64,000 nt of DNA from an uncultured Alphaproteobacteria bacterium (GCA_903821695.1 CAIJLX010000097.1:3542-67541); one strand, 5' to 3'. Counted from the stretch's first letter, positions 739 to 53,036 are shown. A program made the numbers and translations. The notes: generated from the sequence alone by a model not told the origin.

Positions 739-3700
739 CTACAACAAGAAGTCAGTGGTATTGATTTCTTCTGTGCCTTGTAGTTTGATGCCTAGGTTCA
801 AGTCGCTATTGGAGAGGAACATACCGCCGTCTTCCGTCGTTCTAGCTTGTAGCACGAGTGTATAAGCATCATGCACAACAGTAGAGCTACTAGCACTCAC
901 AACTACGACGTTGGTATAGCCGAAAGCCTTAAGATCGATTTTATCTTCGCCAGCTTTGAAATCACCAATCGCATCAGATGCATCAATGGTGCTACTGCCG
1001 TTGAAAAACACAAATACGTCGTTGCCTTCACCACCCATCAGATAATCTCGGCCCATATCACCCGATACCGTATCGTTGCCTAGATCACCGAAGACCGTGT
1101 CATCTCCCTGACCGCCATAGACTAGGTCATTTCCCTGTCCGCCATGTACGATATCATTCGCTAGGTTACCATTGAGTGTGTCATCGCCGGTATTACCGTT
1201 CATCCTGTCTGTGCCTTTGCCGCCCAACACCGTATCCTCACCCTCGCCGCCATAAACTTCGTCGGCCCCTTGGTTGCCTTGGAGTGCATCATTACCTGCG
1301 TCGCCGGTTAATACGTCTGCGCCCATGTTGCCAGAGAGCACATCGCTATTTCGTGCGCCAAGTAACGTGTCATTACCGATAGTACCGATTAATTCGATGC
1401 TCTCGTCTTCGACATCCTCAGTCACAACGATCACAAAGTCGTGGACAATGGTTAGGCCCTCTGCATCGGTTGCGGTAACCGTGATGGTGTAGCTTGTGAC
1501 ATCGTCGAGTGGTCCGGCCAGCGTCACCTCGCCGGTTTTCGCATCAATGGCGAATAGATTATTCGGGTTCGTTGTCAGGCTATAGGTAAATGTGTCATCC
1601 GCATCCGGATCGATTGCTTGAGCGGCGATACCGACGGACGTGCCGATCTCTGCCTTTTTATCAATGGCGTTCACAACCACATCGCCATCAACCACATCCG
1701 TGGGCGCTTCGTTCACATTCGTCAGGCCGATGGTGAACATCTGTGACGTGCTTTGGTTAGCGGCATCAGTTGCCTTCACGGTGATGTTATGGCTGCTTGC
1801 CGTTTCATAATCGAGAACGCCGGCAACGCTTACCACCCCCGTCGACGCATTAATCGCGAATTTACCATCCGCATTATCCGTCAGGCTATAGGTGAGTGCG
1901 CCTGGCGCAGTGGCGCTGGCTGTAATACCCACGGTCGCGCCAATCGTTGCATCTTCTTTCACACTGTTAACCACAGCATTACCATCCACCAGATTCGTCG
2001 GTGCATTCGGATTGGTAGGCGTTTGATGGATATCGGTAACACCAATGGTGAAGGTTTGTGTCGTAACAAGCCCACCAGCATCTTTTGCTTCCACCGTGAT
2101 CTTATGGCTTGGCGTATTATCCAATGCACCGGCAACTTTTACCACACCGGTGGTGGCATCAATCGCAAACTTACCGACTGCATTATCGGTCAGGCTATAA
2201 GTCAGCGTACCTGCATCCGGATCGGTTGCTTTCGCCGTAATACCCACCACAGTGCCAATCGCCGCACTTTGCGCCACGCTATTTGCTGCAGTATTGCTAT
2301 CCACTAAATTGGTGGGTGCTTCATTGACGTTCGTCACACCAATGGTGAATGTTTGTGTCGTGCTAAGCCCGCCTGCATCCGATTCTTTCACAATAATGCT
2401 CTGGTTTTGTGAAGCTTCATAATCAATTGCGCCAGCAACCGTTACAACACCCGTCGTCGCATTAATAGCAAACTTACCACCCGCATTATCCGCCAAGCTA
2501 TAGGTAAGTGTGCTACCCGCATCCGGATCCGTCGCTTTCGCCGTAACACCAACCACAGTGCCAACAGCAGCATTTTCTGCAACGCTGTTTGTGGCAGTAT
2601 TACTATCCACTAAATTGATTGGTGCTTCATTCACGTTTGTCACGCCAATCGCAAAAGTCTGCGTCGTGCTAAGCCCACCTGCATCCGTTGCCTTAACAAT
2701 AATATTGTGGCTGCTAGCTGTTTCATAATCCAATCCGGCCGAAACAGTCACAACGCCTGTCGTCGTATTAATCACAAAGCGACCACCAGCATTATCCGTC
2801 AGGCTATACGTCAGTGTATTACCCGCATCCGGATCCGTCGCTTTCGCCGTAACACCAACCGCAGTACCAACAGCAGCATTCTCCGCAACAGAGTTCGCAG
2901 CACTGTTGCTGTCGACCAGATTCACTGGTGCTTCATTCACGTTTGTTACGCCGATAGCAAATGTTTGTGTCGTGCTCAACCCACCAGCATCGGTCGCTTT
3001 CACAATAATATTGTGGCTAGCAGCAGTTTCATAATCGAGCGCACCGGCAACCGTAACAACACCAGTCGATGTATTAATCGCAAACTTACCACCAGCATTA
3101 TCGGTGAGGCTATAAGTCAGCGTAGAAGCATCCGTTGCCTGGGCAGTAACCCCTACCGTCGTACCAACAGCAGCATTCTCTGCAACGCTGTTTGTCGCTG
3201 CATTAATATCCACCAAATTCGTTGGGGCACTTGTATCCGCAGTTGGCTGGCCATTCGTCACATCGATATTAAATACTTTCTGGACGCTAAGCCCAGCTGT
3301 ATCCGTTGCTTTTATCGTGATGTTATGGCTAGTCGCCAATTTAGAATCAAATGTGCCAGCTACGCTCACCACACCAGTGGTGGCATCAATCGCAAATTTA
3401 CCACTCGCACTATCAGCCAAACTATAGGTCAGTTTATCACCATCTGGATCAGTCGCACTGGCCGTAATACCAACAAGCGAACCAATCGCTGCTTTCTCAG
3501 AAACACTGTTGAGAGCCGTACTACCATCTATTAAATTAAGCGGTGTAGTATTTGGTTTTGTGTCTTCAGCTGTAACGTTCACGTTGAAAAAGAAGGCAGT
3601 ACCTAAGCCTGTCGAATCAACGGCTTTTACAAGCACCTGCATATTGCCAAGTGCCTCTGGAGTTTTAATCAGGGTAATCACACCCGTATCTGCATCTATG

Positions 3701-6700
3701 CTAAAGTACTTGTTATTTTCAGTATTGCTAAGGCTATATGTTGTTTTTCCGGCACTGCTCTCAGGAGCGAAGGCTGTGACACCAACACGCGTCCCTAAAG
3801 CAGCATTGATTGAAACAGCATTGATCGCTTGATCAGCGTCTTTAAGTAAACCGGCACCATCATTGATATCTGTCAAATTGAGAGTGAATGTTTTAGTGGA
3901 GCTTAACCCCCCTAGGTCCGTTGCTTTTACCGTGATGTTATGGCTGCTCGCAGTTTCAAAATCTAAATCACGGCCAACTTTAATAACACCGGTATTGGCA
4001 TCAATTCTAAAATTCCCTTCCTCATTATTAATGAGGCTGTAAGTAATTCTATCGCCTGCATCAACATCTGTGGCACGTGCCGTAATATTGGTAAAAGCAC
4101 CGACTTGCGCATTTTCAGCAATTACGTTGGCGGTAACGTCTATATCTATAATCTCAGAAGGAGCATGGTTCACAAAAACTGGGCCGGTACTTACAGTTGT
4201 ATTCTGTGTGTGCATTGCTGCAATGTTCTGTGCACCTAACGCGGTTGAACCAATATAAAGATTATCAATATTACCTTCAAACGTACCTTTGATAGTTGGA
4301 TCTACCGTCCAAGGACCCGAGGAACCCACGTGAATCCCATAGGTATTGTTTGGATTAAAGATCGCATCCCCTTGGGCCTTGGTAAAAGACATTGTATAGG
4401 CACTCTTGCCATCAACATAGAAAGTAAACGAATTGTGGCTGACCGTGATGGCAATATCATGCCACTGGTTGTCTGCCAAATTAGTGGTTGGAACAAATCT
4501 GACCGTTTGGCCTACAATACCCACATTCACAGTGTTAGTTGCAGCGGCGAGCGCTACACTCCATAGGCCATGGCTTCCTGCCAAAATCATGCCCCCGTTA
4601 TCAACTTTTGCTGCTTGCATGGAATAGGCCATGGTCAATTCTTGCATGCCACTTAAATCAGGATCATTTTTTACATCGATATAAATATGATCATTATTGG
4701 CACCCAATGAGAGTGCTTTGCCACCATATGGTGTATCAACAAACACAGGTGAGCTCATGCCCACTATCAGGCTTTCGTGGCCGGAAAGGTCGATAAAACG
4801 ACCATCAAAATTCATTTTGACGCCAACTTCATCCTGAATATTAAGTGTGCTTGTCGTTGTACTGCTATGCCCCTTACTATCCGTAACAGTCAGTTTTACT
4901 TCCTGTTCGCCGAGGGTCTTGAAAGTTTTATTTACAGTCACTCCATGTTCTGTAGTGCCATCAGAAAACTTCCAGGTATAAGTGGCGCCATTTAAGTTAA
5001 ACCCTTCTTGCGGCAGTGAAAGGCTTGCATCAAATGTATGTTGGTAATGCTCATTTACTACTTCGGAATGTTGGGTAAAGATAGCGGTTGGATTATTAGC
5101 ATCTGCGGCGGCTACAAATGCGCCTTTATAAGTGCCATCGGCATTCAGCATCGCGGGCACTTTTAAGCTCGCAAAATCCTCTTTCGTGGCATTTTCTGCA
5201 TTTGGGTTCATCAGATAATTATTTGCCGAACCATCACCGATATTATAAACTACGTTACCTTGCCAAATATCAGTATCGGTTCTGGGAGTGCCGTATTTAT
5301 ATGGAAGAATATTGTCTGTAACTGTAACATCGGTTGACCCCTTGTAACCGATGCCGGGGACATATACATCACTAGGATTAACAATGCTGCCTGCATAATG
5401 CAGTATGTTATTGGTTATTACTAAACCCTCTGCGTTACTAACCGAGATAGCATTTGAGTGCTGAGAATTAATCACGTTATTTTCGATCGTAATGTTCTCT
5501 AAGCCATAACGATTTGCCAAAATCCCGTTAGCATCGGGCTGCAGATAATCGCCCCGCATGAAAATCGCTTGTGCGCTGCTGCCTAGATTATCGTAAATGA
5601 AATTACCACGGATAACGACATCTGACGTGTTTTGTATCGCATCTTTTTCAACCCAAAACTGAATAAAGTCAGTGTGAAGTGCCTGAGAGTGGCTCGCATC
5701 CGGCGAATAAAGTGTATTGTTTTCGATCAACACATGTGAAAGATTTGAGCCATAATCAGAGTTATCATTCAGGTTGTCATGATACAGATTATTGATAACA
5801 GTAATGTAGCTCGATGGGCTACTGTTACCAATACCAGTTCCAGTCAAAAAATTATGGAATGTGTTGCCATCTAGCGTAATATGATCCGAGCCCCGGATAT
5901 CGGTACCAGAGATTTGCGCCCGCGCCACCACACCCATTGGCATGTTGCCATCGAGATCACTATTCTTCAGCGTAATATTTGAACTGTTACCAACCGTAAA
6001 GGCAGCACCATAGGCTTGGGTTAAAGGGGTTTCTATTTTTATCGAATCAATCGTAAGATTCTGAACGCCGTTTAAACCGATCTGGTCAAAGATTGCCTGA
6101 TTATGCACATCTTCTGATTTAATCGTCACGGTACTGGTATATGTGTGGTCAGGCTTAACTCCGTAAGGCATATTGAGGCTTCCAAAATTAACCCCCGCTT
6201 TTAACAAAATAGTCTCCCCACCCGTTGCCATTTTCAACGCGCTATTAAGTTCGGCTAATGTCGATACGTGAATCGTACTGCCGACATCAATGGCAAATGT
6301 TTTATCAGTGTGTAAGCCGCCTGCATCGGTTGCCTGCACGGTTATGTTATGTACACCACTGCTCGTTAGTGGCCCCGCAACGGTAACCACACCCGTTGAA
6401 GAATTGATCGCGAATCTGCCGCCATCATTATCGCTGAGGCTATACTTAATGCTATCGCCGGCATTGGTATCAATCGCATTCGCAGTAATGCCCACCGTCG
6501 TACCAACAGCAGCATCTTGTTTCACACTACTCGCGCTGGTGTTTGTATCCGTCAAATTAATCGGTGTCGCATTTGAGTTATTTACACCAACATGGAATGT
6601 TTGAGTGGTGCTAAGCCCACCAGCATCGGTTGCCTTTACGATAATATCATGCTCAAGCCCATCCAATGCTTTCGCAACAGTTACCACGCCGCTCGTTGCG

Positions 6701-29290: not shown

Positions 29291-29367
29291 GGGCGGTTAG
29301 CTCAGTTGGTTAGAGCGCCACGTTGACATCGTGGAGGTCGTTGGTTCGAGCCCAATACCGCCCACCA
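29291..29367 (+). tRNA. tRNA-Val (anticodon GAC)
   Basis: 77 nt, folded by hand: acceptor GGGCGGT/ACCGCCC, D arm GCTC-AGTTGGTTA-GAGC, anticodon arm CCACG-TTGACAT-CGTGG, T arm GTTGG-TTCGAGC-CCAAT, and an encoded CCA. Confidence 0.9.
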
Positions 29368-29538: not shown

Positions 29539-30843
29539 CTACTCCAACACATTCAACATATTATTTGCTGCCGCATCGCGAGTGCCTAATGGCTCTAGTC
29601 CGTAGCGGGTTTGGATTAGTTTTAGAATCGAGCTTGTGTCATAGACGGTATGATCGACAAAACCTTTTTTAGCATGCGGCGAGATGATGATGGTTGGGAT
29701 GCGCATACCAGGTCCCCAACGGTCGGTTTTAGGTGGCGCGACGTGATCCCAATAGCCACCGTTTTCATCGAAGGTAATGATGATGAGGCTATCTTTCCAG
29801 ATCTTGCTCGCCTTGATGGTTTCGATAATTTTTTCGATATGCGCATCGCCGGAAGTGATATCGGTATAGCCCGGGTGCATATTAAATTCGCCCAGTGGTT
29901 TGTAAAAAGAGACAGCGGGCAACGTGCCGTTTTTTATTTCTTTCATGAAATCTGATTCATCTTTGAGATGGCGTTTTTTAGCTTCAGTACCATCAGCGAA
30001 TTGTTTGAAATAGACAAAGGGCTGATGGTGAAATTGGAAAGAGTGATCTGGTTTGCCTGCAAGCGCATCGTTCCATCCACCGCTATACCACGCCCAGGAT
30101 ATATTTTTTTCCGACAGACGATCACCGATCGTCGCCATGGTTTGTGGCGGTAATTGTTTTTTGTTGGGCTTAAATGGTGCATATGTAGGCTGCAATGTAT
30201 TCACCACATAACCATCGGGAGTGACCGGAAAATCGATCATCCTGCCGTTTGCATCTTTTCGTGCGACGATTTCTTCCGGTGGATTTTCATAATACGGCAC
30301 ACAAGCACAAATCATAAAAATATGATTGATGAAGGAACCACCGAATGTGCCATGGAAAAATTGGTCGGCAAGCGTATATTCTTTCGCATATTTCCATAAA
30401 GCCGTTTTGCTGCTGTCGTAATAACCCATTACGAGTCCACCCGCATCTGACAGGGCTGCGAAGCGATCCATTTTGCCATCATTGATTTGTTGTTGCTGAC
30501 GATAAAAACTATGCACCAAATCGCCTGTTTTCTCATTCGCCGGAACATAGGCATCAATCAGAAATGGTTTATTCGGCAAGCTCGGAAAACGCTTATCGAC
30601 GATTCTTGGAGATTGATACGTATCAATGACCGGAGGCAATGTTGTGTAAGGTTTTCCATCGAGGTCTTTTTGCAGCTCTGTTGCATTTGCTATACCATCA
30701 GCACCTGGAAAATTACCGAAGAGATTATCAAAACTGTGGTTTTCGAGCGAGATGACGATGATGTGATTAATTTTATTTAGCTTTTCTTCTGCATGCGCAG
30801 TAACCGCAAATAACAGGCAGAAAACGATAAACAATAATCGCAT
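29539..30843 (-). CDS. secreted phosphoesterase (AcpA acid phosphatase / phospholipase C family)
   Basis: Signal peptide MRLLFIVFCLLFAVTAHA. IIVISLENHSFDNLFGNFPGADG and ITFDENGGYWDHV are typical of the phosphoesterase (PLC/AcpA) family. Confidence 0.8.
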   Translation of the reverse strand: MRLLFIVFCLLFAVTAHAEEKLNKINHIIVISLENHSFDNLFGNFPGADGIANATELQKDLDGKPYTTLPPVIDTYQSPRIVDKRFPSLPNKPFLIDAYVPANEKTGDLVHSFYRQQQQINDGKMDRFAALSDAGGLVMGYYDSSKTALWKYAKEYTLADQFFHGTFGGSFINHIFMICACVPYYENPPEEIVARKDANGRMIDFPVTPDGYVVNTLQPTYAPFKPNKKQLPPQTMATIGDRLSEKNISWAWYSGGWNDALAGKPDHSFQFHHQPFVYFKQFADGTEAKKRHLKDESDFMKEIKNGTLPAVSFYKPLGEFNMHPGYTDITSGDAHIEKIIETIKASKIWKDSLIIITFDENGGYWDHVAPPKTDRWGPGMRIPTIIISPHAKKGFVDHTVYDTSSILKLIQTRYGLEPLGTRDAAANNMLNVLE

Positions 30844-30850
30844 AGAAAAC

Positions 30851-31267
30851 CTAGTTCATTTGTTTTGGTAAATCGCTTGGGCTATCGAGTGAGAAAGCAG
30901 GGATCGTAATTTCGAGCGTTTTGTTTTCAGGCCCGCTGAAATAATAATAACCGGACATGATGCCGGAGGAAGTCGGGAGCATTGTACCGCTAGAATATTC
31001 ATACACCTCGCCTGGGTTGAGCACCGGGGTTTCGCCTACAACGCCGGGGCCACGCACTTCTTTGACGAAACCTTTGGCATCGATAATTTTCCAATAACGG
31101 CTGACGAGCTGCACTTTTTGCTGACCGGTGTTTTGCATCCGCACGTGATAGGCCCAGGACCAATTTTCGGTATGGGGGAAGGATTGCGATTCGAGATAGA
31201 TCGGGGTGACCGTTATTTCGATATCGTGGGTCGTGGCAGTAAAGCGGGCGGGGATTGAGATCATCAT
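30851..31267 (-). CDS. apaG: ApaG (DUF525) protein
   Basis: ITVTPIYLESQS......WAYHVRMQN.G...VQLVSRYWKIIDA.G...EVRGPGVVGETPVL.PGE.YEYSSG is the ApaG signature. The start is taken at the ATG pair 31267/31264 rather than the track's TTG at 31339. Confidence 0.85.
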   Translation of the reverse strand: MMISIPARFTATTHDIEITVTPIYLESQSFPHTENWSWAYHVRMQNTGQQKVQLVSRYWKIIDAKGFVKEVRGPGVVGETPVLNPGEVYEYSSGTMLPTSSGIMSGYYYFSGPENKTLEITIPAFSLDSPSDLPKQMN

Positions 31268-42526: not shown

Positions 42527-42560
42527 CGGGCAATCTTAGCCCGGCAAAAGTGATTTGAAA

Positions 42561-42610
42561 AGTGGCGGGAGTGACGGGACTTGAACCCGCGACCTCTGCC
42601 GTGACAGGGC
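42561..42610 (-). repeat. island att repeat, tRNA-distal copy (orphan 3' fragment of tRNA-Asp)
   Basis: AGTGGCGGGAGTGACGGGACTTGAACCCGCGACCTCTGCCGTGACAGGGC is identical over 50/50 nt to 52958-53007. It covers the tRNA from the CCA end through the anticodon loop. No 5' half follows it. Confidence 0.9.
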
Positions 42611-42755: not shown

Positions 42756-42781
42756 TTTTTTGGACTTCATTTGGACTTCAG
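42756..42781 (+). repeat. 26-bp internal island-end repeat, copy A (2 x TTTGGACTTCA)
   Basis: TTTTTTGGACTTCATTTGGACTTCAG is identical to 52878-52903. It lies 5 nt upstream of the integrase ATG. Confidence 0.85.
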
Positions 42782-44799: not shown

Positions 44800-44924
44800 T
44801 AAGACGATTTATTAGCCGATTTTCTAGCCGATATACTATTTAATAGAACCTATAAAGCAGGGTTGGAGTTCCCTTTTTAGTTGTGCCTAAGATGACCCCC
44901 AGTTCACAAAACTCTGGAGGTATT

Positions 44925-45191
44925 ATGGAACTTCTTTCAACAACGTCATTATCGCAAAAGACACCCACAATCACGCCAATGCTTCTAACCGAAGAAGAGG
45001 CAGCAGCGTACACATCTTTTAGTCGTTCTTTTTTACGCAAGTGTAGAATGACAGGGGCGGCACAAAATGGCATCCCGCAACCGAAGTTTATAAAAATCGG
45101 CAAGAGGGCTATCCGCTACCTAAAGTCGGATCTGGATGAATGGATTTCAAACTTCCAGCGAGTCGAGCATCTAGCCGCACTCGAAAACTAA
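44925..45191 (+). CDS. AlpA/excisionase-family HTH protein
   Basis: The ATG at 44925 follows GGAGG. LLTEEEAAAYTSFSRSFLRKCRMTG....IPQPKFIKIGKRAIRYLKSDLDEWI fits the phage AlpA / HTH_17 excisionase pattern. Confidence 0.7.
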   Translation: MELLSTTSLSQKTPTITPMLLTEEEAAAYTSFSRSFLRKCRMTGAAQNGIPQPKFIKIGKRAIRYLKSDLDEWISNFQRVEHLAALEN

Positions 45192-48312: not shown

Positions 48313-48679
48313 AAGGGATGGTGCTTCTGTTCCCAGCAAGGGAGTAAGCTATCAGTTATAGGCGATGATTTTGTTGTGATGCTGAACATATAGTCGTGTG
48401 CACCAGCAATCTTTTCCTAATTTCCCCCTTGTCTTTAACAGTCAATCCCCTATCGTTTCATTGAACAACCAAGCGGTTGTTTTGGAGCTTCAAACTCCAT
48501 CAGGGCGGCTGACATCGGCCGCGAATGATGTCGTCTTCCGACCTTTATGGCCGGAGTGCGATAATGCATGTCCAGCCTTGCGGTAAAGATTATCGCGGTC
48601 ATCCCTGATGATTTTGAAGCTCCGGCTACCAGCACAATTCCGTGTTGGTGGCTTGGGGCTTAATCAATCGGGGGGCGAA

Positions 48680-49702
48680 ATGACATCACTGCTTATATTA
48701 GTACTTTCCATCAGTCTTATTGTCGGCACTATTGCCGTATTTGTGGATTTGCCCACATTAAAAATCACAACACGCACACAGGGTAAAGTCATTGCGGGTA
48801 CTTCTTATCTGCTGCTGTTATTACTCGCGCCTGATGGTACAAAATACGGTCTTTTAGTGATGCTCTGCATGTCATCCATTCTTATTGGATTGTTAAATCT
48901 TGTCTATCCTTGGAAGCGGATAGGCATCCATACCCGAAAAACAGCAGGGTACATACTTCTCTTCGCACTCGTGCCTATGCTTGCTACAAATGCTTTTGAA
49001 ACACAGGATGGGGTTAGAATGCTCAGCTATAAAGCCGAGCAGCAGCGAACCGATAAAGTTGCGATAGAAAAGAAACGGCAAGAAATGCTGGCGCAGGAAG
49101 AAAAGATGAAGCTGGAACAGCCTGAAGCCTATGCAAAAATGATGGCGGATAAAGAGGCAGAAAGTCGTACACAACTAGCGAAGCAGAATGAGGTTAGCCA
49201 AAAAGAAGCGATGACACGTCAGAAAGCGGTAGATAGCCAAGCTGCTGTAGTGAGTACGATTGTCGTGGTTTTGTTTTTTGCTCTTATCGCTTGGATAGGT
49301 TGGCTCGGTTCAGCGATTAAAACCGAGATTTTGGCTGGAGATTTCAAAACGGGTATCGCTCCTATTTACCACATTCCATTCAAGGGGAAGTACATCACAC
49401 TGAAAAGCTCCGATGGTGGAACGAAGATGCTAAAAAAGTGGAAAGTCGAAAAAATATCACTGTCGGAACTGGATGCAGTAGATGAGGTTACGAAAGAGAA
49501 TGAGAAAAAGTTTGGTGGTTCGCTAGGGGCAAGCTTGGTTGGTGGTGCTATTTTCGGTGGCGCAGGATTGTTAGCAGGAGCATTATCTGGTGGAAGCAAA
49601 ACCAAGATAGCTTTCGCAGCCACATTCAAGGATGGCCGCAGGTTTCTAGGCACAGTAGATGGCAAAGAGTTTTTGGTGTTAAAAGCGGCAGCCTTCAAAT
49701 GA
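48680..49702 (+). CDS. hypothetical multi-TM / coiled-coil membrane protein (island cargo)
   Basis: The ATG at 48680 follows GGGGGG. Four N-terminal TM helices are followed by a Lys/Glu/Gln-rich coiled coil (KVAIEKKRQEMLAQEEKMKLEQPEAYAKMMADKEAE), a fifth TM helix, and a C-terminal globular part with a Gly-zipper (GGSLGASLVGGAIFGGAGLLAGALSGG). Confidence 0.6.
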   Translation: MTSLLILVLSISLIVGTIAVFVDLPTLKITTRTQGKVIAGTSYLLLLLLAPDGTKYGLLVMLCMSSILIGLLNLVYPWKRIGIHTRKTAGYILLFALVPMLATNAFETQDGVRMLSYKAEQQRTDKVAIEKKRQEMLAQEEKMKLEQPEAYAKMMADKEAESRTQLAKQNEVSQKEAMTRQKAVDSQAAVVSTIVVVLFFALIAWIGWLGSAIKTEILAGDFKTGIAPIYHIPFKGKYITLKSSDGGTKMLKKWKVEKISLSELDAVDEVTKENEKKFGGSLGASLVGGAIFGGAGLLAGALSGGSKTKIAFAATFKDGRRFLGTVDGKEFLVLKAAAFK

Positions 49703-50187
49703 GCCACAAAGTTTCGCACCTCATACTGCTAACGATATTGCTTTCAGCCTGTCAGAACATAATGCCAAGCGATAAAGGCTACTTGTATGGCACAGCCAAG
49801 GTCATTGATGGTGATACATTGCGGGTGGCTGGGGCTGATATAAGGTTGTTTGGCATTGATGCACCAGAGGTGAGTCAGACCTGCACCAGAAGAGGCGTGG
49901 AATGGTCATGTGGTGAGGTGGCAAAAAAACGCATGATAAAGTTAGCAGAAGGTAAAGTCGTGCGCTGCAATACCAGAGGCCGTGACTCACGCTATCGCCG
50001 CCCCGTGGCAGTGTGCTGGCTTGGTGGTAAAGAGCTGAACCGCATGATGGCGGCTGAAGGTCTGGCAGTAATAGATGAACGCTACCCCACCGATTATCAA
50101 AAAGAGCAAGCAGCAGCCCGCAAAGCAAAACGTGGTGTTTGGGCTGGAGAGTTTGAGCAGCCTAAAGATTGGCGGAAACAGAATTAA
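49699..50187 (+). CDS. SNase-type (thermonuclease family) nuclease, predicted lipoprotein
   Basis: The start overlaps the upstream stop (ATGA). Lipobox LLSAC. VIDGDTLRV, IRLFGIDAPE, RYRRPVAVC and AKRGVWA correspond to staphylococcal-nuclease Ca-binding and catalytic motifs. Confidence 0.8.
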   Translation: MSHKVSHLILLTILLSACQNIMPSDKGYLYGTAKVIDGDTLRVAGADIRLFGIDAPEVSQTCTRRGVEWSCGEVAKKRMIKLAEGKVVRCNTRGRDSRYRRPVAVCWLGGKELNRMMAAEGLAVIDERYPTDYQKEQAAARKAKRGVWAGEFEQPKDWRKQN

Positions 50188-50229
50188 CGACTTACGGACT
50201 TTGTTAGTATATGTTATATAAGGTTAATT

Positions 50230-50988
50230 ATGGCAAAGGCTGGAATAAAACATAAAGACTATAAAAAGCCTCCTATTAAAGAGGCAGTTATAGAGGTGCG
50301 CTTTACTGACAGCCTAAGTAATGCTGCCTTAGAAAAACTAGTCTTAAAGCTGAAATCTAAATTCAGCGTCCAGAAGATGGAAGAGTTTGGGATAAAAATA
50401 TCCCACGAACAAAAGTCTGGGGTAAAAACAGAGCCCTTAAAAACAAGGCTAATCGGTTATAAATTGATTGAAAATGCTGACAGCACGAATGTGGTGCTGC
50501 TTAAACATGATGCTTTTTCTATCTCGCAGCTTGCTCCTTATCGCGGATGGGCTGAATTTTTAGAGAACTTTAAGAAATACCACGACATTTATACACATAA
50601 GCAGCATAAGAAAATAAGTAGAATAGGCGTACGTTTTATCAATAGAATTGATATTCCAGCGAGTGGAAACAAGATTGAGCTTGAAGATTATTTCAATGTC
50701 TTCCCAACACTTCCTAAGAAGGATTTTCCGGACTTTAATCGTTATGTGGTTCAAACCACATCACTTCTCGATACAGAGAAATTGTTGACGATTAACGCTT
50801 ATAGCTATAACGAAGATACGCCACTTATAGACCACTGTTCTATTGTGTTGGATATAGATATTGGGCAAATAAATAATCTGCCACAGAACTCTACAAAACT
50901 ATATCAAGTGTTAGAAGAACTAAGAGAAAAGAAAAACTTTTTCTTTGAAAAACTGATTAAACCTCAATCCAGAAGGTTATTCAAATGA
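50230..50988 (+). CDS. TIGR04255-like uncharacterised protein
   Basis: 252 aa. The N-terminal YKKPPIKEAVIEVRF pattern and the overall size match my memory of the TIGR04255 family. No function is known. Confidence 0.5.
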   Translation: MAKAGIKHKDYKKPPIKEAVIEVRFTDSLSNAALEKLVLKLKSKFSVQKMEEFGIKISHEQKSGVKTEPLKTRLIGYKLIENADSTNVVLLKHDAFSISQLAPYRGWAEFLENFKKYHDIYTHKQHKKISRIGVRFINRIDIPASGNKIELEDYFNVFPTLPKKDFPDFNRYVVQTTSLLDTEKLLTINAYSYNEDTPLIDHCSIVLDIDIGQINNLPQNSTKLYQVLEELREKKNFFFEKLIKPQSRRLFK

Positions 50989-51599
50989 GTGCATTAGCCC
51001 GCTCCCCTTTTTTAAAGCAACAGTCTTCGTCCAAGTCTGAGGTAATATCGTCGAGTATTTATTCAAACTATCCTGACAATTTAGAATCTACTAACGCCAC
51101 AGGAAAGCCAGAAGAGCCTACCAGAACAGAAGAATTAGAAGACCCTTCAACGGAAGAAAGAGTGCTATGTAATCGCGCTGAATTAAAAATCATCGCCTCC
51201 ATATATGCATTGCAACATATAGAATCAAAGGTGCGGACTCAATTGTTTAACCAAATAGATTGGTTGCTTAGTCCTGAAAACTGGGAAGACGAAGATAAGC
51301 TAGCTAATAAAGATTCGTTTAAAACGCTGATTAAATTCATACTTAATTTCCATCCTACCGAAGCTCCTTATTTGGGGTTATCTTCAGAAGGTAATTTACT
51401 CGCTGAATGGCGACAAGAATCAAACAAGTTATCTCTTGAATGCCTTCCACAAGAGAAAACAAAATGGTTCGTTTCTTGCACAATTGATGGTGAAGGAGAG
51501 AGAGCCAGCGGGGAAGCTCCATCTTTGCGACGTTTGCTTAACTTGTTAGAGCCGTATAAAAAAGTGGGTTGGTTTAATGAGTCAGAAAAACATACCTGA
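50985..51599 (+). CDS. hypothetical protein (island cargo)
   Basis: 204 aa. The start overlaps the upstream stop (ATGA). The N-terminus is Ser-rich and acidic and looks disordered; the C-terminal half is globular. I recognise no family. Confidence 0.5.
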   Translation: MSALARSPFLKQQSSSKSEVISSSIYSNYPDNLESTNATGKPEEPTRTEELEDPSTEERVLCNRAELKIIASIYALQHIESKVRTQLFNQIDWLLSPENWEDEDKLANKDSFKTLIKFILNFHPTEAPYLGLSSEGNLLAEWRQESNKLSLECLPQEKTKWFVSCTIDGEGERASGEAPSLRRLLNLLEPYKKVGWFNESEKHT

Positions 51600-52050
51600 T
51601 AGCGATAATGTATTGCGATGGGCGAAGAATGCACATCTGGTCAAAAATCATGATGGAAAGGTTATCGGCTGTTATCATGTCCTATTCACATTGCGTACAG
51701 ACCAAGAATTTATAGACCGCAAAGGTAAAAAAGAGGATTTCTTATCTGTTAACTGGTTAGAGTATTTTACTGGCACCCAAGACGAGCAGCTCAACGCAGC
51801 AGTGAGTGAGTTTAAATCCAAAAGAGGGAATAAACTTCCGAAAAACTCTTATTTCACTCAACTTAATGTTGGAGAGCTCAAAGAACTCTGCCTCAAGCAT
51901 TCGGCCAAAGTCAGGGTAGTTCACGAATCAACAAAAGACAGCCACAGTGCGATTAGACAGTTACCCCAAGACAAAACTATGCTTTTTGATGATTTATGCA
52001 CGGCGGCTTCTAAGAGCCTAATACCAGCCACTAAGTTTGCTTGCAAGTAA
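51577..52050 (+). CDS. hypothetical protein (island cargo)
   Basis: 157 aa, overlapping the upstream gene by 23 nt. The N-terminus IPDSDNVLRWAK... and the FLSVNWLEYF motif look like a recurrent uncharacterised family that I cannot name. Confidence 0.5.
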   Translation: MSQKNIPDSDNVLRWAKNAHLVKNHDGKVIGCYHVLFTLRTDQEFIDRKGKKEDFLSVNWLEYFTGTQDEQLNAAVSEFKSKRGNKLPKNSYFTQLNVGELKELCLKHSAKVRVVHESTKDSHSAIRQLPQDKTMLFDDLCTAASKSLIPATKFACK

Positions 52051-52126
52051 ACCCACTCGTTATGATTGCTTGTATAGAAGCAAAACCTTAACACCTGATA
52101 TTCAATGCTAATATAACAAACTTTTA

Positions 52127-52140
52127 TGCAACTAGTTGCA
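52127..52140. promoter_or_regulatory. perfect 14-bp palindrome (candidate operator)
   Basis: TGCAACTAGTTGCA lies 46 nt upstream of the ATG at 52186. Confidence 0.4.
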
Positions 52141-52185
52141 AAATGTGTATTCTGATAGAAACTCCACGGAGGAACGGAGGCAGAA

Positions 52186-52719
52186 ATGAAAAATCAAAAC
52201 AACCATCGCCCTACCTTAAACAAGCGTATTGTGGTGGACGCAGAGCTTGCGAGAAAGCTACTTGCGTTCAAAAACGGCTGTAAATCTGGTGAGTTTGATA
52301 AGAAAGTCGAAAAAAAGTTCGGCATCAAAAGACGTAAGGCACGGTATGTGCTGCAAATTGCAGACAAGCTAAAGGAATCGGAAATAGCATGGGAAAAGGT
52401 TGGGCACTTGGGGTGGACAAAGCTAAAAGAGCTTGCGCTGATTATAACCAAAGAGAATGTTGATGAGATAATGAAAAAACTAGCAGATGCTAACATTGAT
52501 ACAGTGAAGAAGTTTGTCCGCCAATATGATGGGGATAGTAAGCAGGTGGTCGAACCAGTAAAAACCATGTTGCTCACATTATCACCTGCTCAGTATGACG
52601 CGATAAAGAAAACTTTGGAGCGTATAAAGGTAAAGAAACTGGACGGCAACGGCGAAGCACTAGCCGCACTGTGCAAATCTGCCGAGCTAACGCACAAGCG
52701 AGCCAACAAAACCAAGTGA
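52186..52719 (+). CDS. hypothetical basic protein, possibly DNA-binding (island)
   Basis: 177 aa and Lys/Arg-rich, with a strong SD (GGAGGAACGGAGG). The segment RRKARYVLQIADKL...GHLGWTKLKELA is loosely ParB/HTH-like. I recognise no firm family. Confidence 0.5.
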   Translation: MKNQNNHRPTLNKRIVVDAELARKLLAFKNGCKSGEFDKKVEKKFGIKRRKARYVLQIADKLKESEIAWEKVGHLGWTKLKELALIITKENVDEIMKKLADANIDTVKKFVRQYDGDSKQVVEPVKTMLLTLSPAQYDAIKKTLERIKVKKLDGNGEALAALCKSAELTHKRANKTK

Positions 52720-52877: not shown

Positions 52878-52903
52878 TTTTTTGGACTTCATTTGGACTT
52901 CAG
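52878..52903 (+). repeat. 26-bp internal island-end repeat, copy B (2 x TTTGGACTTCA)
   Basis: Identical to 42756-42781. It lies 55 nt inside the tRNA-proximal att repeat and is followed by a 10-bp inverted repeat, CAGTCACTTT (52901-52910) / AAAGTGACTG (52944-52953). Confidence 0.85.
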
Positions 52904-52957
52904 TCACTTTTTCATTTTCTGATTTTTATCTCAAAATCTGCTGAAAGTGACTGTGAG

Positions 52958-53007
52958 AGTGGCGGGAGTGACGGGACTTGAACCCGCGACCTCTGCCGTG
53001 ACAGGGC
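52958..53007 (-). repeat. island att repeat, tRNA-proximal copy
   Basis: 50/50 identity with 42561-42610. It forms the 3' 48 nt of tRNA-Asp plus 2 nt. Confidence 0.9.
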
Positions 53008-53036
53008 AGCGCTCTAACCAACTGAGCTACACCCCC
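52960..53036 (-). tRNA. tRNA-Asp (anticodon GTC)
   Basis: The reverse complement folds as acceptor GGGGGTG/CACTCCC (one G-U pair), D arm GCTC-AGTTGGTTA-GAGC, anticodon arm CTGCC-CTGTCAC-GGCAG, T arm GCGGG-TTCAAGT-CCCGT, discriminator G and CCA. Confidence 0.9.

Follow-up and report, generated by a model that had tools for sequence, protein, structure and literature searches.

The described systems that come closest to the three-gene cassette reported here are the TAC modules, the PrrC/RloC-type genes and the PDC-M32 candidates, while its first gene falls into a catalogued protein family, TIGR04255. The cassette lies on an integrative island in a 64,000-nucleotide stretch of DNA, referred to below as the window, from an uncultured Alphaproteobacteria bacterium (GCA_903821695.1 CAIJLX010000097.1:3542-67541), where it forms the last three (g3 to g5, or components A, B and C, together the trio) of five consecutive genes. 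TAC modules (HigBA-SecB-like, CmdTAC) consist of three small coupled genes, combining a SecB-like chaperone with a toxin and an antitoxin, the latter with a chaperone-addiction segment. PrrC/RloC-type genes, which encode anticodon nucleases, are embedded in type I restriction-modification (RM) loci. PDC systems, as yet unvalidated, are candidates put forward because they lie within known defence loci ('guilt by embedding'; PMC12881386), and PDC-M32, a system of two genes, was reported in Sinorhizobium prophages (PMC12429752). The family of component A is listed as 'sporadically distributed protein, TIGR04255 family', a name that carries no function.

Compared with these systems, the components of the trio appear to be unnamed and without counterpart in the defence catalogues searched. 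Component A matches the TIGR04255 model along its full length, with 86.3 bits against a cutoff of 30 and residues 11-252 covering profile positions 2-252 of 252, in agreement with the TIGR04255-like gene proposed by an initial annotation of the window, and its homologues are labelled likewise in their sources. The obligatory partners B and C are included in no model: NCBIfam release 20 (June 2026) holds the uninformative TIGR04255 model and none for B or C, and scans of the island proteins assigned g4 and g5 to no Pfam, NCBIfam or PHROG family. Literature searches under TIGR04255, IPR026349 and CHP04255 found no mention, although a very recent or non-open paper may name the system. When the 5027 models of PADLOC v2.0.0 were run, neither g3 nor g5 gave a match at E ≤ 0.1, and 136 family members yielded weak matches only, to PDC-M32A in four or five of them, to PDC-M32B in one and to HEPN_IX in one; the initial annotation had likewise been unable to match the block to a named system.

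The likeness to PDC-M32 is partial. The match of g4 to PDC-M32A (E 1.8e-5, 22 bits) is confined to positions 241-344 of 375, 104 of the 375 positions and far from a family-level match, and with three or four other B-type proteins g4 shares a weak match to the C-terminal third of that model (E 7e-6 to 2e-5). A single trio-family member weakly matches PDC-M32B (E 5.9e-4), whereas g5, the neighbour of g4, matches neither protein; moreover, PDC-M32 has two genes and the trio three, and no A protein matches any PADLOC model. In their setting the two are alike in that distant TIGR04255 trios also occur beside type I RM genes. With TAC modules the trio shares three small coupled genes and a constant component accompanied by exchangeable two-gene sets, and the apparently disordered extension of the middle protein, N-terminal in B, recalls the chaperone-addiction segment, but this is an analogy only: no SecB family was matched by g3-g5 in Pfam or NCBIfam, and the gene order differs. 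Nor did g3-g5 resemble a type II toxin-antitoxin (TA) pair, as no toxin or antitoxin family of Pfam, NCBIfam or PADLOC and no helix-turn-helix (HTH) domain was detected in them. As with PrrC/RloC-type genes, variant TIGR04255 sets are found in several loci directly beside hsdM, hsdS and hsdR, but sequence and domain similarity is lacking and the trio of the window is not adjacent to RM genes. Rst_3HP ('three hypothetical proteins') was also considered, and no link to the trio was found; there was no PADLOC match, and PADLOC may lack Rst_3HP models.

The five plus-strand open reading frames (ORFs) described in the initial annotation, with their ATGA overlaps, the 42-nt gap and the 23-nt overlap, were all recovered (Table 1). 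Their division into units emerged from a sister contig of the protein database (L097), approximately 98% identical to the window by blastn at positions 48419-48675, 49793-50184 and 52126-52719, whose genes comprise one resembling g1, the nuclease and g6, the next gene of the island. In this contig about 48 nt separate the nuclease stop from g6, versus 1.94 kb in the window. Because L097 keeps the nuclease and g6 with this short spacer in place of the trio, the trio can be regarded as a discrete block that is either present or absent. Its genes also have a GC content of 36-41%, versus 44-50% in the neighbouring genes. As far as sequence comparison can tell, g3-g5 are a self-contained 1.9-kb cassette, a unit distinct from g1-g2.

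Table 1. Features of the integrative island and its cargo, in positions of the window.
Feature	Position	Strand	Evidence and remarks
g3, component A, TIGR04255 family, 252 aa	50230-50988	+	TIGR04255, E 2.8e-24, 86.3 bits
g4, component B, 204 aa	50985-51599	+	ATGA overlap with g3 (4 nt); 29 homologues; weak PDC-M32A match
g5, component C, 157 aa	51577-52050	+	overlaps g4 by 23 nt
Trio cassette with short flanks	50185-52125	+	replaced by ~48 nt in sister element L097
Gap between g2 and g3	50188-50229		42 nt
g1, multi-transmembrane membrane protein	48680-49702	+	ORF; hydropathy peaks; phrog_12025 (3.6e-9) and phrog_20920 (2.2e-7), both of unknown function
g2, lipoprotein SNase nuclease	49699-50187	+	PF00565, 2e-13; NF005083, 9.4e-21; ATGA overlap with g1
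Far att repeat, displaced copy of tRNA-Asp 3' half	42547-42610		direct repeat D1 with 52944-53007
TTTTTTGGACTTCATTTGGACTTCAG, containing two copies of TTTGGACTTCA	42756-42781		repeat D3, 100% identical to 52878-52903; tandem 11-mer
Second copy of the 26-nt TTTGGACTTCA-containing repeat	52878-52903		identical to 42756-42781
Tyrosine integrase, 417 aa	42771-44024	+	C-terminal HDxRH...LGH...Y pattern read in translation; no family scan of the ORF
AlpA/excisionase-type HTH protein	44883-45191	+	PF12728, 5.7e-7; PF05930, 3.8e-4; phrog_66 excisionase
g6, 177 aa, island gene	52186-52719	+	phrog_17202, 4.8e-21 (function unknown); 98% identity to L097
Perfect 14-nt palindrome TGCAACTAGTTGCA	52127-52140		~45 nt upstream of g6; conserved in L097 (~4705-4718)
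tRNA-Asp (GTC), integration target	52960-53036	-	ARAGORN; Rfam tRNA, 72.8 bits

The initial annotation had presented the five genes as tightly coupled and had allowed for one or two modules; the comparison supports two, g1-g2 and g3-g5. A single nuclease-based DNA-exclusion system made of all five genes would accord with their common strand, their overlapping or nearly abutting frames and a g2-g3 gap of only 42 nt with no clear promoter, features for which the five genes are probably co-transcribed in this island. Set against this, the trio is missing as a block from an otherwise 98%-identical element that retains the nuclease and g6, a g1 or g2 homologue adjoins the trio in none of more than 60 other loci, and the lipoprotein signal of the nuclease would place it outside the cytoplasm, whereas the translations of A, B and C, inspected by eye and not with a signal-peptide or transmembrane predictor, display no export signal or transmembrane segment. 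A five-gene system is accordingly given a chance close to negligible.

The nuclease itself is as initially annotated, a staphylococcal nuclease with intact DGDT, IDAPE and Arg residues; it scores 51.2 bits against PF00565 (gathering cutoff 21), and its translation displays a lipobox, LLSAC, at the N-terminus (…LLTILLSAC…), on account of which it is probably exported. Homologues are carried by 274 plasmids, mostly alphaproteobacterial, with varying and unrelated neighbours. The thermonuclease family lipoproteins of alphaproteobacterial plasmids are approximately 40-49% identical to g2 and alike in the PF00565 domain, the Ca-site and the catalytic motifs; nothing notable sets them apart, and the upstream membrane-protein partner is kept only in near-identical elements, the only ones among which g1 and g2 travel together. 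The place given to this nuclease in a defence module by the initial annotation could not be maintained: the nuclease is not the effector of the trio, being exported by virtue of its lipoprotein signal and common as plasmid cargo with varying neighbours. Its substrate would be periplasmic or extracellular DNA, outside the cytoplasm, possibly DNA that is entering the cell or present in the environment.

For g1, the coordinates of the initial annotation were retained and its length was not: the ORF from 48680 encodes 340 aa, and the 364 aa originally quoted correspond to a start at 48608 (longest ORF, 48608-49702). The start at 48680 is preferred because a GGGGGG Shine-Dalgarno-like run lies upstream and the 98% identity to L097 ends at 48675. 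The middle of the protein is charged and resembles a coiled coil, a glycine zipper lies in its C-terminal domain of 125 aa, and its similarity to the L097 counterpart is confined to the C-terminal 124 aa (48% identity). When window positions 48676-49792 are aligned with L097 positions 3517-4258, two-thirds of g1, counted from the N-terminus, and the opening ~30 codons of the nuclease gene prove to be replaced, being either unrelated or ~68% identical, so that this interval appears as a second variable spot of the island besides the trio. No match to g1 was obtained by tblastn against phage and plasmid collections, and a scan of viral contigs for its C-terminal domain found none. Given the lipobox of g2, the plasmid nucleases with unrelated neighbours and a g1 body swapped between 98%-identical elements, g1-g2 are most simply viewed as ordinary island cargo, separate from the trio.

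The trio recurs widely as a unit. A tblastn search recovered g3, g4 and g5 in the same order in seven metagenomic loci, never with g1, g2 or g6. A scan of GTDB, with one genome per species and a peptide pattern derived from A, returned 236 relatives of A, of which the best 80 loci were fetched. The trio was defined operationally as a TIGR04255 gene followed by a B and then a C homologue on the same strand, overlapping or nearly abutting, a description that suits the trio of the window with its overlaps of 4 nt and 23 nt; components were assigned by iterating hidden Markov models over all ORFs of 97 loci, and the count was taken over the 75 distinct loci in which A is intact and followed by at least 1.2 kb of sequence. 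All three components were present in 59 of the 75, with identical order and strand in every one of the 59, a proportion that describes the near family and not all TIGR04255 genes, because retrieval used one pattern and was ranked by similarity. The co-occurrence of the last three genes in the same order in other genomes, raised in the initial annotation, is thus established for these loci. In 30 loci the stop of A and the start of B share 4 nt, and in 13 they share 1 nt. Pairwise identity has the same median of ~32% in A, B and C and is correlated among them (r 0.71-0.79), so that the three components evolve as a unit.

Relatives of A are distributed patchily across phyla, with hosts among the Alpha-, Beta-, Gamma- and Zetaproteobacteria, Bdellovibrionales, Saccharimonas and Paceibacteria; the A-B-C loci counted above extend over Proteobacteria, Bdellovibrionales and CPR bacteria. 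For C, an exhaustive search by profile collected 1221 cluster representatives at 50% identity, and the best-scoring 150 of these 1221 were all stand-alone proteins of 117-207 aa. Apparent absences of C mostly reflected the choice of start codon in ORF calling, and a preferential loss of C or A from decayed loci, which had been considered, was dropped since most such 'losses' were artefacts of this kind; real damage consisted of single in-frame stops in L003 (A) and L061 (C) and of frameshifts in all three genes of L063. A tblastn search of the phage collection with g4 and with a variant-locus B2 protein gave no match.

More distant TIGR04255 genes precede different small gene sets, from which it can be deduced that A is constant and the downstream pair exchangeable. 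In one set, A is followed by B2, with the motif 'NWDGYGA…EPDG..LEW', and by C2, with 'LSVxR…NPxHAxIxGWP'. Profile comparison with hhalign related C1 to C2 with 95.6% probability (E 1e-8) and B1 to B2 with 55% (E 1e-4), cross-pair controls remaining below 1%, which identifies B2 and C2, at the level of sequence profiles, as remote homologues of B and C. A second set contains a protein of 190-230 aa with the signature 'SQSCDLENDK…YREHLAQAFARYFMRVGLP' and no Pfam match, and a third (L091 6754-7544 and L093 3023-3936) comprises TIGR04255, an uncharacterised protein of ~145-180 aa and a HEPN-like protein of ~120 aa, whose match is weak (PF05168, E 0.009, below the Pfam cutoff; PADLOC HEPN_IX, 7e-4).

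Further observations concern these variants. The 190-230-aa protein occurs downstream of A in L087, L090, L092, L094, L096 and L078, with the motifs 'QGD(I/L)L…CP', 'SQSCDL(E/A)NDK' and 'SPYREHLAQAFARYFMRVGLP', and in L094 it stands directly upstream of a type I RM methyltransferase. L091 may adjoin type I RM genes, the Pfam and PADLOC counts being pooled across loci. In three loci with B2 and C2 (type II; L011 7695-9773, L083 7640-11469 and L089 7749-10933), more genes follow C2 on the same strand nearly without gaps, among them a UvrD-type helicase in L011 and proteins of 221 and 1000 aa in L083, so that certain variants may consist of four or five genes.

Conservation and structure prediction give some indication of what the components could do. 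Across 124 sequences, A conserves E18, Y104, W107, R131, R135, N138, R139, D208, D210 and K235. Its AlphaFold model (pLDDT 94.1, pTM 0.89) contains eleven strands and four helices in two halves, and the conserved polar residues lie on strand 1 (E18, E22, R24), strand 8 (R131, R135, N138, R139, D141), strand 11 (D208, D210) and the last of the long helices (R232, K235, N236), where in the model they possibly form a charged ligand pocket for a phosphate-bearing molecule plus a metal. Foldseek comparison of this model with the PDB ranked AdoMetDC/prozyme first (E 7e-4), but with a TM-score of 0.31 and an rmsd of 18 Å, and further returned the triphosphate-tunnel enzymes Pct1 and mimivirus triphosphatases (E 4e-3 to 0.1, TM-score ~0.15). 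The alignment of B comprises a Ser-rich, variable N-terminal region of ~60 aa, probably a disordered tail, and a conserved and presumably folded C-terminal domain (QIDWLL...WEEGD...SFKTL...LGLS..GNL.A.W). In C, R14 and S57 are invariant and R40, W60, E62 and H123 nearly so; the fold matches of its model (pLDDT 96.6, pTM 0.89) start at E 0.18-0.24 and none is significant, but two members of the ADP-ribosyltransferase superfamily, pertussis toxin S1 and a Tpt1-like protein, rank among the best (E 0.18-0.8) and may serve as a lead. Profile searches with A, B and C against all PDB sequences returned nothing.

Among seven IMG/VR viral contigs encoding A, six carry the full trio, placed between holin and integrase genes in L098 and between large terminase and portal genes in L103; in a marine prophage the trio directly follows the endolysin and holin genes, and variant trios were found on a P2-like Ralstonia phage and a Crinalium plasmid. 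These accessory loci of temperate phages, together with the present integrative island, would suit a weapon of phages or mobile elements against the host or competing elements, for counter-defence or superinfection exclusion. Most copies, however, are chromosomal with no mobile-element genes within 6 kb, and such a role overlaps with host defence, as superinfection exclusion by a prophage is in practice defence; we consider a phage-side weapon very unlikely as a separate explanation. One variant lies among GmrSD, methyltransferase, DUF488 and UvrD genes, and across 19 variant loci the neighbours include HsdM (4), HsdS (3), HsdR-like (2), DUF488 (2) and ParE (2), all of them raw counts, like those given below for the close trios. 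The close (type I) cassette is usually a solitary insertion.

In several species of one alphaproteobacterial clade the trio occupies a shared site, ccmC | trio | FYDLN/aroA, at which the flanking proteins are 76-96% identical and the trio proteins 60-75%, with relationships incongruent with those of the flanks. A conserved position beside ccm and aroA might speak for a cellular function outside conflict, for instance that of a small enzyme complex, regulatory or involved in the stress response, with a nucleotide or polyphosphate as substrate and simply carried about by mobile elements, as might the mostly housekeeping neighbours of type I trios, the conserved charged Glu, Arg and Asp on the model strands of A and its weak matches to AdoMetDC/prozyme and triphosphate-tunnel proteins. 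Yet at that very site the trio is far more divergent than its flanks and incongruent with them, as would be expected of conflict genes that evolve rapidly or are exchanged, and its distribution across phyla is patchy, it occurs in phage genomes between structural or lysis genes, and the partners downstream of A are swapped wholesale. A non-conflict role is consequently judged improbable. The site also holds additional genes, DUF3047 on either side (L001, L003, L005) and, in L001, a FitA/PIN pair, DUF2442 and GIY-YIG genes, and seems to behave as a small accessory-gene hotspot in that clade.

What is best supported is a description of A-B-C as a cytoplasmic conflict cassette, self-contained and exchanged horizontally. 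That it serves, more specifically, as an anti-phage abortive-infection or TA-like system protecting the host or the mobile element has, in our estimation, about an even chance. Such a defence function is plausible from context, and to that extent the defence or exclusion role proposed in the initial annotation stands: in its favour are the accessory positions in prophages, the fast and incongruent divergence and the variants beside type I RM genes, and on the other side are the housekeeping neighbours of the type I trios.

A selfish addiction cassette, TA-like and maintained through post-segregational killing or stabilisation of its element with no anti-phage role, would leave many of the same traces. 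The trio is compact, translationally coupled and sporadic, it forms solitary insertions between housekeeping genes and also resides on plasmids, prophages and islands, near-identical elements differ in having or lacking it as a block, and ParE toxin genes adjoin variant loci. It nevertheless has three genes and not two, no antitoxin-type DNA-binding domain or known toxin fold was found in it, and the variants beside type I RM genes and the accessory positions in prophages are explained at least equally well by defence. Many TA-like modules, moreover, prove to be defence systems. Pure addiction is regarded as unlikely, if deserving of some weight.

Under the defence interpretation, A would be the constant sensor or regulator, its charged pocket binding a phosphate-bearing ligand, as suggested by Glu, Arg and Asp residues that are conserved on three of the model's strands, and B and C would be an exchangeable pair wired to it. 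C, small and globular with conserved R, R, S, E and H, would be the effector or toxin, and B would serve as its partner, either restraining it or coupling it to A. These assignments derive from the constancy of A and the swapping of the pairs, from the weak HEPN-like protein at the position of C in one variant and from the probably disordered tail of B.

Several points weigh against this interpretation. The roles of A as sensor, B as neutraliser and C as effector follow from modular logic, and no experimental phenotype has been reported for TIGR04255 or its partners. Family scans of g3-g5 recognised no nuclease, NADase, protease, pore or ATPase signature, nor the DNA-binding domain typical of type II antitoxins, and Foldseek found no significant structural neighbour for A in the PDB or for C in the PDB and BFVD. 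The loci surveyed stem from a single peptide pattern and from a ranking by similarity. Finally, the 118 nearest neighbours of the close trios were mostly housekeeping genes with very few PADLOC matches, and because of this overwhelming predominance an enrichment in defence islands is not shown for type I trios.

A broader proposal extends to the whole family, in which TIGR04255 would be the constant sensor or regulator of a large, unrecognised, modular class of anti-phage systems with exchangeable effector sets (B-C, B2-C2, the HEPN-like pair and the SQSCDL protein). It is offered tentatively, as somewhat likelier to fail than to hold; if true, this class would have its commonest form among Proteobacteria in the trio of the window.

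The trio of the window is carried by a 10.4-kb genomic island integrated at tRNA-Asp, with an integrase and, on either side of the cargo, a direct repeat that copies the tRNA 3' end (Table 1). The initial annotation had placed the five genes on such an island, and the tRNA 3'-end repeat does bracket the integrase ORF, the AlpA-type gene and all five. The D1 copies are 64 nt long and 92% identical; ~50 of the 64 nt are identical, a portion that includes the 48-nt 3' part of tRNA-Asp (52960-53007). Phage_integrase family matches were obtained only for analogous genes in related loci. One copy of the 26-nt TTTGGACTTCA repeat lies immediately 5' of the integrase gene and overlaps its start, while 57 nt separate the other from the 3' end of the tRNA. 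The two would stand on either side of the attP core once the island was excised as a circle and may thus represent arm-type sites of the integrase, an arrangement that would suggest that the island is still mobile. The palindrome TGCAACTAGTTGCA is probably an operator or promoter element of g6 and marks the right edge of the cassette insertion. Scanning the island with Rfam and a tandem-repeat search revealed no non-coding RNA and no repeat array like that of a type III TA system.

Other features of the window were noted in passing. A 12-nt unit, CGATTTACTAGC, is repeated 2.8 times at 44805-44838, just upstream of the AlpA-type gene, and may be a regulatory or iteron-like element. Between 45505 and 48312, an ORF of 203 aa with a GFO/IDH/MocA Rossmann domain is followed after 27 nt by one of 722 aa, which begins with the matching GFO/IDH/MocA C-terminal domain and ends in a fumarylacetoacetate-hydrolase domain; the pair looks like a single gene interrupted by a stop codon or frameshift, or else like a fusion protein of unusual kind carried as island cargo. 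A second tRNA gene, tRNA-Val (GAC), is located at 29291-29367, followed by a dip in GC content to 0.43 at 30001-31000.

For the window, these results amend the view of the five genes, which constitute two units, the nuclease being ordinary exported cargo of a mobile element. The trio itself appears to belong among the compact mobile defence or TA-like cassettes, with components that have no detectable relatives there. Should it prove to be a defence or abortive-infection system, a widespread family would be added to those described, as A occurs in at least 236 species-level genomes and C in 1221 clusters at 50% identity, and its mechanism would probably be new, given that a comparison of the PDB with the confident models of A and C turned up nothing significant. 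The combination of a constant A with swapped partner pairs would offer a simple route to further effectors, and TIGR04255, long a 'sporadically distributed' family without annotation, would gain a function.

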